Positions 27,365-28,424 of a stretch of 35,391 bases of DNA are shown here, one piece after another. The translations under genes were made by a program, and so were the position numbers. The notes beneath the pieces were generated by a model, which did no database searches, had not been told where the DNA came from, and saw only the letters and a program-made list of their open reading frames with translations. The stretch is taken from IMG/VR virus record IMGVR_UViG_2778261298_000003; one strand, written 5' to 3'. Position 1 is the first letter of the stretch. Each line of letters opens with the position of its first letter. The DNA comes from a virus. Taxonomy: Duplodnaviria > Heunggongvirae > Uroviricota > Caudoviricetes.

Positions 27365-27538
27365 TCAGATTAAATTAATCTTGACATCATAGCTTTCAAG
27401 ACCCGTCATTTTTTCCCGTGCGGTAAACTGAATACTGGTAACTTCTTTCCCGGTCTTTTTCTTAAGTTCAATAATTTTTTTTGTTATATATTCAGAAATA
27501 TCTGCTTCTGCTTTTGTTTTTAAGTTTTCAATATTCAT
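27365..27538 (-). CDS. gnsB: GnsA/GnsB-family small protein
   Basis: 57-58 aa from tandem ATG ATG (MMNIENLKTKAEADISEYITKKIIELKKKTGKEVTSIQFTAREKMTGLESYDVKINLI); not in the ORF track (below length cutoff). Confidence 0.75.
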   Translation of the reverse strand: MNIENLKTKAEADISEYITKKIIELKKKTGKEVTSIQFTAREKMTGLESYDVKINLI

Positions 27539-27709
27539 CATTTCCTCTTTTAGTCTGTTATGACTTTCCAGTTACACAGTAAGTCGATTATATGGTGCAA
27601 ACGTGTAAAAGATAAGATGAAACATCGCAATAATCAACATACGATAGTCTAAATTTTACACAAACAGACAAAGAAAATTTTCCTGAATTATCAATACAAT
27701 AGCATCAAA

Positions 27710-27940
27710 TCAACTCAAGAGCCTTATTGCTGCTTCCAGAATTTCTTCTGAAGTAACATGTCGATCCGCGGCTACATAAATGACTTTATGATCTCCGGTC
27801 AGAGATGGAAACCCTGCGGCCATTACAGTAAGGTGTGTTTTTTCGCCATTTGGATATTCACGCATGATGGTGTTAACTCCAGTCATCGCTGGCACTACCA
27901 CTGCAGGTTCAGAGTTAAAAAAAACTATGATTTTTTTCAT
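27710..27940 (-). CDS. ynfN: YnfN/YmcE-family small protein
   Basis: ORF-track frame to 27982; start re-set to the internal ATG at 27938-27940 (MKKIIVFFNSEPAVVVPAMTGVNTIMREYPNGEK...), 76 aa. Confidence 0.7.
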   Translation of the reverse strand: MKKIIVFFNSEPAVVVPAMTGVNTIMREYPNGEKTHLTVMAAGFPSLTGDHKVIYVAADRHVTSEEILEAAIRLLS

Positions 27941-28211
27941 GATGTTACCGTAGTATGTGAGTATCCATCGAATAGATACCAAGCAAAAAAGCTCCCGAAG
28001 GAGCCTTCATTTTCACTTTTTTAAATCCAACGACAGACGGCTGGCATTTAAGTATTGTGAAATATTATCAAATGTAATCATCATTGATTTACAAAAGATA
28101 CATTTTGCCCCGAAAGGATTCATGTCAGAAACATCAAAAGATGATGTTCTATACTGGGAACCATGACAACACGGGCATCTAAAGTGAATATGGTTTGTAA
28201 TATTGTCTACC

Positions 28212-28424
28212 TCAAAGCGCCACTACATGAACAGCGGCAGGACCTTTAGGTCCGTTCTCAATACCAAATTCAACTTCCTGATTCTCAGTTAATGTTTTGA
28301 AATCGTTGCTCTGAATTGCTGAGAAATGGACAAACACATCTTTGCTGCCATCTTTCGGCGTGATGAAACCAAAACCTTTTTCAGGGTTAAACCATTTCAC
28401 TAAACCAGTCATTTTGTTAGACAT
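28212..28424 (-). CDS. cspI: Cold-shock protein, CspA family
   Basis: 70 aa with RNP1/RNP2-type motifs ([20 protein letters not shown]); about 360 bp of upstream untranslated sequence, as is typical for cspA-family leaders. Confidence 0.9.

Follow-up and report, generated by a model that had tools for sequence, protein, structure and literature searches.

The cspI-ynfQ-ynfR-ynfN-gnsB cassette of a Qin-type lambdoid prophage is most likely a cold- and stress-responsive moron

The Qin prophage of E. coli K-12 MG1655 carries cspI, ynfQ, ynfR, ynfN and gnsB (b1552, b4724, b4749, b1551 and b1550). All are annotated genes of the bacterium that has been studied best, and a characterisation of GnsB through overexpression dates from 2001. 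According to accounts that cite Sugai 2001 (10.1101/2024.03.27.586906; PMC10607373), overexpression of gnsA raises the level of unsaturated fatty acids and gnsB reportedly acts likewise; overexpressed K-12 GnsB also suppresses fabA6(Ts) and a secG null mutation (Sugai et al. 2001, as cited there). Plasmids carrying gnsA or gnsB both rescue low-temperature growth defects (10.1101/2024.03.27.586906; PMC10607373), and the lipid effect is known from overexpression only (PMC10607373). On the E. coli chromosome, gnsA lies in the cspG-ymcF-ymcE-gnsA locus, and ymcE-gnsA is found among the type II toxin-antitoxin systems of E. coli in a listing that cites Wei et al. 2015; the sequence-only reading of this DNA had mentioned GnsA as a proposed toxin and YmcE as its partner. 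The Pfam families are named GnsAB_toxin and YmcE_antitoxin, and the NCBI name of GnsB is addiction module toxin. Lambdoid phages also carry accessory units that fit the moron concept of Hendrix, and bor of phage lambda, which lies on the strand opposite the late strand, is such a moron.

The window analysed here, the whole stretch of 35,391 nucleotides, contains at positions 27365-28424 a known accessory cassette, cspI-ynfQ-ynfR-ynfN-gnsB, which has already been annotated in Qin-type lambdoid prophages of E. coli. The sequence-only reading had described a block of three small late-strand genes, cspI, ynfN and gnsB, situated between the lysis cassette and cos and led by a long regulatory leader of the CspA type. 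All three genes are real and lie where it placed them, on the minus (late) strand, and its leader is confirmed by Rfam, but RefSeq has five CDSs in the block and the small genes ynfQ and ynfR had been overlooked. The location also holds, with the lysis genes rzpQ (28788-29285) and rrrQ (29282-29815) on one side and the packaging genes nohA/Nu1 (25578-26123) and large terminase (23678-25603) on the other. Gene identities and anatomy are directly established, and the features, in the order of transcription, are as follows.

28576..28604, minus strand: cspI promoter-like element, read from the sequence
28425..28570, minus strand: CspA-type 5' untranslated leader (thermoregulator) of 146 nt, Rfam RF01766
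28212..28424, minus strand: cspI, 70-aa cold-shock-domain protein, Pfam CSD E 1.6e-31
28013..28201, minus strand: ynfQ, 62-aa YmcF-like CxxC...CxxC small protein, Pfam PF23641 E 6.9e-32 and RefSeq
27984..28008, minus strand: T1, intrinsic-terminator-like hairpin right after the ynfQ stop, GAAGGCUCC-UUCG-GGAGCUUUU plus a U6 tract
27945..28010, minus strand: ynfR, 21-aa ORF (RefSeq) whose codons 2-10 are the T1 hairpin
27710..27940, minus strand: ynfN, 76-aa conserved protein, five strands and a C-terminal helix
27917..27924, minus strand: T8 homopolymer inside ynfN (codons V-F-F), from alignment with K-12 Qin and locus L006
27587..27637, minus strand: conserved element in the ynfN-gnsB spacer, putative gnsB promoter judged from its conservation
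27365..27538, minus strand: gnsB, 57-aa GnsA/GnsB-family protein, Pfam PF08178 E 3.1e-35, Shine-Dalgarno GAGG at 27547-27544
27307..27338, minus strand: T2, intrinsic-terminator-like hairpin and T-tract closing the cassette, from a terminator scan

The gene set and order are identical to those of Qin in K-12, and many E. coli chromosomes, IAI1 among them, match a 2.4-kb query covering the block with its flanks (26400-28800) at 100% identity. Over the 1301 nt from 27300 to 28600 the window differs from K-12 Qin at five positions (1296/1301 identical); cspI, ynfQ and gnsB show no base difference, and YnfR differs by a single I/V change. The ynfN genes differ in kind: K-12 has T7 in place of the homopolymer and is frameshifted to an annotated form of 51 aa, whereas the window gene, with T8, is intact at 76 aa. 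Among 1565 E. coli records, 1130 have the exact T8 version and 417 the exact T7 version; the 66-nt megablast probe probably misses the allele of the 2H10 type, which affects counts of E. coli gnsB without ynfN. The flanks of Qin are alike in having rzpQ on one side, with ydfO and ynfO on the other, but the window prophage, unlike K-12 Qin, has kept packaging and head genes (terminase, portal) with long ORFs downstream of them. The same prophage carries cspB and cspF beside its lysis genes. A relationship between YnfQ and YnfU (30563-30733) is unsupported (E 0.09).

The CspA-type identity of the first gene rests on a cold-shock domain of about 70 aa together with a structured 5' leader matching the cspA thermoregulator RF01766 (28185-28570; 112.8 bits against a gathering score of 78, E 2.5e-28). 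Even at E<=1 this was the sole RNA family that the Rfam scan returned in the block, with none in the spacers. The Rfam model begins at 28570, 6 nt downstream of the -10 hexamer of a promoter-like element that consists of TTGCTA (-35, 28604-28599), a 17-nt spacer, and TGn followed by GTTAAT (-10, 28581-28576); the region upstream is AT-rich, and the K-12 cspG promoter region contains the same 13-nt core ATCATGCGTTAAT. A simple promoter scan called neither this element nor that of gnsB. YnfQ belongs with the YmcF-like proteins of PF23641, having the CxxC pairs CPCC and CIFC, and its gene, preceded by a GAGG Shine-Dalgarno sequence, starts with ATT, as does ymcF. Conservation was observed directly: cspI, ynfQ, ynfN and gnsB are all under purifying selection (dN/dS 0.02-0.18), with values of 0.02-0.04 for cspI against Citrobacter, 0.08-0.17 for ynfQ and 0.04-0.07 for gnsB. 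In each of the 22 loci examined, csp is followed by a ymcF-like gene, and csp with the ymcF-like gene precedes gns in 19 of 19, the pair being the only constant part.

In 12 of 13 loci a hairpin with a T-tract occupies the T1 position; the T1 hairpin itself has -12.4 kcal/mol and z -2.3. One T-A pair of its stem is C-G in L016 with a T.G intermediate in L015; this is the only compensatory pair, spotted by eye in an alignment where differences in loop length shift the 5' arm. The ynfR start lies 2 nt after the ynfQ stop and its end 4 nt before the ynfN start. YnfR was also considered as a remnant of YmcE, but BLASTP returned nothing, and the two are alike only over the translated terminator hairpin (APSGAFL versus LPRGAFF).

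YnfN has a beta-rich, confidently predicted fold without a match to any solved structure, and no DNA-binding or known antitoxin fold could be recognised in it. The spacer of 171 nt that separates it from gnsB contains TTGATT (27637-27632), 17 nt and TATCTT (27614-27609), plus a perfect TATAAT (27592-27587). Between the E. coli phage and Citrobacter loci no part of the spacer is conserved better than this element, while synonymous sites in the flanking genes are saturated. A promoter-like island upstream of gns is kept in all locus types, the register of its -10 varying between loci, and in K-12 the homologous block sits within ymcE. Structure in the gnsB leader is unremarkable (z 0.17). Translation of gnsB most likely begins at the second ATG (27538), the start that the K-12 annotation uses, and not at 27541. 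GnsB is a GnsA/GnsB-family protein by sequence and size, scoring 120.3 bits against PF08178 (cut-off 27) over model positions 1-54 of 54, and its residues 1-56 match in sequence the GnsA crystal structures 4XO1 and 4XO2, a helical-hairpin dimer (E 5e-20). The closing hairpin T2 has a folding energy of -11.0 kcal/mol (z -3.3); a hairpin with a T-run follows gns in all Citrobacter loci, whereas Escherichia loci of the cspG type have the hairpin without the T-run.

We consider it quite likely that, taken jointly, the known Qin-type cassette is a moron complete in itself, paralogous to the csp-ymcF-gns cassette of enterobacterial chromosomes, that it is not a toxin-antitoxin module, and that it works in the way proposed below. 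Its moron character is seen in a cspA-type promoter and leader of its own, the terminator T2 and the insertion between Rz and Nu1, and equally in its sporadic occurrence. The block is present in the isolated phages Tritos, 2H10, mEp460, PhiR42_1, PhiR63_1 and HannyBb, and gnsB in 7 of 50,697 phage records and 2138 of 5426 E. coli genomes. Copies in Citrobacter lie in unrelated chromosomal contexts, and in K-12 the cassette is expressed from the cryptic Qin (PMC6001520, PMC11228462, PMC7406224). An alternative is that the cassette mainly serves lytic growth, being transcribed with the late genes under Q antitermination and providing late gene expression or lysis at low temperature with an RNA chaperone and a membrane modifier. 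Its place directly downstream of the lysis cassette (Rz), on the strand of the lysis and structural genes, its retention in viable isolated phages and the presence of cspB and cspF in the prophage would suit such a role. Against this, promoter, leader and terminators all belong to the cassette itself, which is expressed from a Qin prophage that is not inducible, homologous cassettes work in purely chromosomal contexts, and the small number of phage records with gnsB indicates that it is not needed for lambdoid lytic growth, so that we regard a mainly lytic function as quite unlikely.

Published expression data agree with a cold- and stress-responsive moron and extend it beyond cold. The YnfR-SPA protein is detected in K-12 and is strongly cold-induced (PMC6001520). 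AZT induces cspI 6.5-fold, ynfQ 5.9-fold and ynfN 5.8-fold together, with the same dependence on SspA (PMC11228462), a co-regulation that is seen for cspI and ynfN in long-term stationary phase as well, where both share one profile (PMC7406224). With AZT and long-term stationary phase acting on cspI and ynfN too, the label 'cold' is too narrow. In one published RNA-seq data set at 37 C, gnsB has a profile unlike that of cspI and ynfN, resembling that of gnsA. The genes of the block are not mentioned in a small-protein ribosome-profiling preprint.

In the scheme that we propose, the CspA-type promoter and the 146-nt thermosensing leader would drive cspI and ynfQ after cold shock and some other stresses, giving CspI as a putative RNA chaperone and YnfQ as a zinc-ribbon-like small protein translated from an AUU start. 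T1, directly after ynfQ, is predicted to be leaky. Because YnfR-SPA is cold-induced and ynfR contains T1, transcripts pass the hairpin (PMC6001520), and read-through would reach ynfR and ynfN, which are chained to ynfQ. Csp proteins are antiterminators (PMC4956666), and read-through is probably aided by melting of the hairpin by Csp, by ribosomes translating ynfR across it, or by both. Transcription of gnsB would be fed from this read-through and from the promoter-like element in the spacer, and would end at T2. GnsB may then shift membrane lipids towards unsaturated fatty acids, and the literature does show a lipid effect of overexpressed gnsB. The Sugai 2001 phenotypes were reported for K-12 GnsB, and the gnsB of the window is identical in sequence. 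With this lipid shift, the cassette would pair cold adaptation at the RNA level with cold adaptation at the membrane level for the lysogen. The read-through mechanism, the promoter activity and any benefit to the lysogen are what we infer here, and the cassette offers a compact system for asking if read-through of an intrinsic terminator is governed, in the cold, by Csp proteins or by translating a mini-ORF.

The sequence-only reading had gone further and offered ynfN-gnsB as a candidate pair like the proposed GnsA-YmcE. In such a pair GnsB would be a toxin blocking phospholipid synthesis and YnfN its neutraliser. Apart from the family labels and the cataloguing of ymcE-gnsA, the idea draws on two small, adjacent genes on the same strand that travel together in E. 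coli prophages, and on the fall in ATP and rise in persisters upon gnsB overexpression. We judge it to be very unlikely. The alignments that it called for gave 65% aa identity between GnsB and GnsA, but YnfN is unrelated to YmcE: the best BLASTP E is 8.2, and YnfN has no Pfam match where YmcE scores 188.9 bits on PF15939. The two genes do not form a tight bicistron, being separated by the 171-nt spacer with its conserved promoter-like element, compared with the 11-nt overlap of ymcE and gnsA. They are also separable in both directions, as observed directly. Eight of 19 loci, including L014 and L016, have gns without ynfN, as does the core cspG locus in 5415 of 5426 E. coli genomes, and homologues of ynfN accompany csp-ymcF without gns in three loci (L023-L025), with 3 kb downstream covered in L023 and L024 but 67 nt in L025. 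The K-12 lineage tolerates a frameshifted ynfN beside an intact gnsB. In log phase ynfN expression is low and gnsB relatively high (one published RNA-seq set, 37 C), ynfN tracking cspI, and several mutants were rescued and not killed by gnsB plasmids (10.1101/2024.03.27.586906). PADLOC gave no match for YnfQ, YnfN or GnsB and a generic CSD model match for CspI, which likewise leaves no defence system to propose. The model pair itself fares no better, as no coding signature is seen in the ymcE ORF, which is disrupted in other Escherichia species that keep gnsA intact; the ORF looks like regulatory DNA and not like a conserved antitoxin gene.

A related alternative dispenses with the antitoxin and takes GnsB to be a dose-dependent growth-slowing protein by which the prophage pushes its host into a tolerant, low-energy state, lipid remodelling being the means or a side effect. 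Overexpressed gnsA and gnsB increase ampicillin persisters 10- to 10^4-fold and lower ATP, and both genes rise on leaving early log phase (preprint 10.1101/310961); the drop in ATP and the rise in persisters fit a growth-slowing activity and count against our preferred explanation. A gnsA pseudogene in an O157:H7 strain is likewise what would be expected if the gene were dispensable or costly. Reportedly (Wei et al. 2015), those who deposited 4XO1 and 4XO2 describe GnsA as a toxic protein. We nevertheless consider this reading unlikely, as a single preprint with strong, artificial expression is the source of the phenotypes, secG-null, fabA6, relA fadR and lapC mutants regain growth with multicopy gnsA and gnsB, and the low dN/dS of gnsB with the near-universal retention of gnsA suits a beneficial housekeeping-type role at least equally well.

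The tempting toxin-antitoxin reading can thus be set aside on comparative grounds, and there seems to be little basis for the labels 'GnsAB_toxin', 'YmcE_antitoxin' and 'addiction module toxin', which matters as such labels spread into toxin-antitoxin catalogues and models. A broader joint proposal, to which we give slightly less than an even chance, is that the YmcE-GnsA 'TA system' is an annotation artefact in which ymcE is an ORF that by chance covers three regulatory elements, namely the terminator of csp-ymcF and the promoter and leader of gns. In that case Gns proteins would be antitoxin-free lipid modulators in a modular csp-ymcF-[ynfN]-gns cold-shock cassette, a conserved leaky terminator under the translated mini-ORF ynfR would gate read-through, and YnfN would be a new-fold third member of csp-ymcF operons and not a partner of Gns.

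Compared with known systems, ynfN-gnsB resembles type II toxin-antitoxin modules in its small, adjacent, same-strand genes, one of them labelled GnsAB_toxin, and differs in having no overlap or tight coupling, no conserved partner, no DNA-binding partner fold and, in one RNA-seq data set at 37 C, different expression profiles for the two genes. The cassette shares several traits with lambda bor-type morons: it is accessory, it sits between the lysis genes and cos, it brings its own promoter and terminator, the prophage expresses it, and most relatives lack it; unlike bor, it lies on the late strand and has unrelated cargo, several genes and probably two transcription signals. The loci L023-L025, from bacteria in public sequencing runs, have the order csp, ymcF-like gene, ynfN found here and a terminator after ynfN, with Csp proteins 84-87% and YnfN proteins 52-60% identical to those of the window, but no gns was seen in the sequence covered and additional ynfN paralogues lie upstream. 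The paralogy to the cspG locus that the sequence-only reading had suggested stands for CspI and CspG (79% aa identity), for GnsB and GnsA, and for the overlooked YnfQ and YmcF (66%), although it does not extend to YnfN and YmcE. No ynfN is present in the cspG locus, nothing there corresponds at DNA level to the central part of the block (28064-27557), and the distance from the stop of the ymcF-like gene to gns is 194 nt compared with 474 nt in the window. The ymcE ORF spans regulatory DNA, and its sole counterpart in the window is ynfR, which translates the equivalent hairpin. Both loci share a homologous hairpin after the ymcF-like gene, a promoter-like element and a leader before gns, and the chromosomal cspG locus is thus a paralogous cassette of the one described here.

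The window holds an intact-looking lambdoid prophage with its late genes on the minus strand, and the coordinates bear out the position between the lysis and packaging genes that the sequence-only reading gave to cspI, ynfN and gnsB. Its count of three genes was incomplete, however, as RefSeq has five coding sequences in the block and ynfQ and ynfR had been overlooked. The features are as follows.

29282-29815, rrrQ, lysis gene on one side of the block
28788-29285, rzpQ, lysis gene on the same side
28212-28424, minus strand, cspI
28013-28201, minus strand, ynfQ, RefSeq CDS, 62 aa, ATT start
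28008-27984, minus strand, T1, terminator-like hairpin directly 3′ of the ynfQ stop, UUCG loop and U6 tract, -12.4 kcal/mol, z -2.3
27945-28010, minus strand, ynfR, RefSeq CDS, 21 aa
27710-27940, minus strand, ynfN
27637-27609, minus strand, promoter-like island in the spacer 5′ of gnsB, TTGATT, 17 nt, TATCTT; perfect TATAAT at 27592-27587
27365-27538, minus strand, gnsB
27338-27307, minus strand, T2, second terminator-like hairpin, 3′ of gnsB, z -3.3
25578-26123, nohA/Nu1, packaging gene on the other side

The same block occurs in the cryptic Qin prophage of E. coli K-12 with 5 differing positions over 1301 nt (none in cspI, ynfQ or gnsB), so the object is already annotated in the reference organism. 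Many E. coli chromosomes, that of IAI1 among them, match a 2.4-kb query around it at 100% identity, and 2138 of 5426 complete E. coli genomes carry gnsB. GnsB is present in 7 of 50,697 phage records, among them the isolated phages Tritos, 2H10, mEp460, PhiR42_1, PhiR63_1 and HannyBb, and in the three phage loci examined (Tritos, 2H10, PhiR63_1) the same block lies between lysis and packaging genes. A second accessory unit, ynfO (DUF3950) and ydfO (DUF1398) at 26512-27213 on the plus strand, stands between the cassette and cos and converges on gnsB; phage Tritos and one further compared locus (L007) have a 78%-identical ybcV-like allele in place of ydfO. A full-length Rfam IS009 match (3342-3540, minus strand, 221 bits) lies close to the low-numbered end of the window.

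The long CspA-family leader suspected upstream of cspI was confirmed as an Rfam cspA thermoregulator (28185-28570, 112.8 bits against a gathering score of 78), beyond which an Rfam scan of the block at E ≤ 1 returned nothing. A promoter core resembling that of cspG lies immediately upstream of the leader. A second, stronger thermoregulator match belongs to cspB (31081-31473, minus strand, 158.8 bits), and cspF lies just beyond it on the opposite strand, so that three csp genes surround the lysis cassette of the prophage.

The ATT start of ynfQ (28199-28201) is preceded by a GAGG Shine-Dalgarno sequence, as is that of its paralogue ymcF, and is a conserved rare start codon. YmcF and YnfQ were reportedly described as cold-shock proteins with AUU starts by D'Lima et al. 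in 2017, and their NCBI product names are consistent with this assignment. A hairpin with a T-tract is found at the T1 position in 12 of 13 loci, and across them one T-A pair of the stem becomes C-G by way of a T.G intermediate. The ynfR reading frame is mostly the T1 hairpin translated. Because ynfR spans T1 within a ynfQ-ynfR-ynfN chain (27945-28016) with only 2 nt between ynfQ and ynfR and 4 nt between ynfR and ynfN, translation could be coupled to terminator read-through. YnfR-SPA rises strongly on cold shock (PMC6001520) and, since ynfR contains T1, transcripts must pass it. Another stable hairpin lies inside ynfR at 27980-27960. The ynfN-gnsB spacer measures 171 nt. The promoter-like island is the only part of it that is conserved in both the Citrobacter and the E. 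coli phage copies, and since synonymous positions in the genes on either side have reached saturation over that distance, its conservation is meaningful.

Comparison with the K-12 cspG-ymcF-ymcE-gnsA locus upheld the proposed paralogy for the outer genes (CspI/CspG 79% identity, GnsB/GnsA 65%) and extended it to the overlooked ynfQ (YnfQ/YmcF 66%). In DNA, 28428-28065 aligns with cspG-ymcF at 74% and 27556-27364 with gnsA at 73%; the 508 nt between have no counterpart in the cspG locus, and YnfN showed no similarity to YmcE (best E = 8.2), so the paralogy does not extend to the proposed antitoxin. Pfam places CspI among cold-shock-domain proteins, YnfQ in the YmcF-like family and GnsB in GnsAB_toxin; GnsB residues 1-56 align with the solved structures of GnsA (4XO1 and 4XO2). 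No Pfam family matched YnfN or YnfR and no NCBIfam model matched YnfN, whose sole matches are two phage protein families of unknown function. A small 56-aa CxxC...CxxC ORF, ynfU (30563-30733, plus strand), lies between the holin gene and cspB and did not resemble YnfQ significantly (E 0.09).

YnfN is a real protein. Its family is narrow, with length kept at 75-76 aa and invariant motifs, its dN/dS is 0.06-0.18, and AlphaFold gives a confident model (pLDDT 87.9) of five strands and a C-terminal helix. A run of eight T in its V-F-F codons (27917-27924) is seven in K-12, so the annotated 51-aa YnfN there is what a frameshift has left of a 76-aa protein. Of the 1565 E. coli records that contain this junction, 1130 are exact matches to the eight-T form and 417 (~27%) to the seven-T form, laboratory K-12 derivatives being the top matches listed for the latter; gnsB is intact in the frameshifted strains.

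Apart from one MAG labelled Hafnia, members of the Gns family occur only in Escherichia, Shigella and Citrobacter. All 19 gns-bearing loci have a csp and a ymcF-like gene upstream. What lies in the middle is ynfN in 11 of them and a ymcE-like stretch in 5; one locus has only part of such a stretch, and one has nothing there. Distant homologues of YnfN (52-60% identity), for their part, occur in csp - ymcF-like - ynfN - terminator loci from public sequencing runs (L023 2037-3228, L024, L025 725-2993), which also hold diverged extra ynfN paralogues upstream; no gns lies within the 3 kb that follow in L023 and L024, or in L025, whose contig stops shortly after ynfN. Thus ynfN goes with csp-ymcF and so does gns, but either can be found without the other, and YnfN seems to be a recurring companion of csp-ymcF. 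The small csp-ymcF-(ynfN)-gns cassette seems to travel as one piece: its Citrobacter copies (loci L011, L014, L015, L016 and L017) have unrelated chromosomal surroundings (next to purB and hflD, where an integrase remnant is present; between artP and ybjQ; beside inositol genes), and one is inside a prophage.

It had been suggested that ynfN and gnsB form a toxin-antitoxin-like pair, a reading we consider very improbable. The two genes are neither tightly linked nor consistently found together, YnfN shows no antitoxin-type fold that could be recognised, and published profiles tend to point away from co-regulation. AZT induces cspI 6.5-fold, ynfQ 5.9-fold and ynfN 5.8-fold with the same SspA dependence (PMC11228462), and cspI and ynfN behave alike in long-term stationary phase (PMC7406224), whereas the stationary-phase profile of gnsB differs from theirs and resembles that of gnsA (published RNA-seq, one data set at 37 °C). 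Overexpression of gnsA, and reportedly of gnsB, increases unsaturated fatty acids, and plasmids carrying either gene rescue low-temperature growth defects (PMC10607373; bioRxiv 10.1101/2024.03.27.586906). One preprint (10.1101/310961) describes lower ATP and more persisters on gnsA/gnsB overexpression.

The gene identities, anatomy and conservation of the cassette are observed directly; its read-through mechanism, promoter activity and fitness benefit are inferred. The cassette would most likely be a self-contained cold- and stress-responsive moron of two nested units. In one, the cspI promoter and thermosensing leader would drive cspI and ynfQ, lengthened through ynfR and ynfN by leaky read-through of T1; Csp proteins can antiterminate by melting hairpins (PMC4956666). 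The other would consist of gnsB, a promoter-like element of its own and T2, and would also be fed by read-through. An RNA chaperone and a membrane-lipid modifier carried together would fit low-temperature adaptation.

The model pair itself, ymcE-gnsA, is catalogued in the literature as a type II toxin-antitoxin system, yet the ymcE reading frame looks like regulatory DNA. In K-12 (L002 3848-4078) its N-terminus is the T1 hairpin translated, its middle includes the homologue of the gns promoter-like element, and its C-terminal part is the gns leader, whose nucleotide sequence is also conserved in Citrobacter loci without a ymcE frame and in one ynfN-bearing locus. The window counterparts of these elements are 28008-27984 and 27637-27539. 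In three other Escherichia-lineage genomes ymcE is broken (start codon lost, 1-nt deletion or stop-creating deletion) and gnsA is intact. Substitutions at codon positions 1/2/3 of the ymcE-only stretch are 5/1/0, 1/1/1 and 3/1/0, with no third-position excess and hence no coding signature in these small numbers from three comparisons of shared ancestry, in contrast to cspG (1/0/7), ymcF (2/0/10) and gnsA (3/0/7). In E. coli proper almost all genomes have the locus, and it varies very little; an O157:H7 strain (L022 529-701) has gnsA annotated as frameshifted and ymcE intact. The label of YmcE as an antitoxin may be an artefact. The block as such is already known and our new points are purely corrective: ynfN goes with the csp unit and not with gnsB, intact ynfN encodes 76 aa, and the antitoxin label of YmcE is doubtful.
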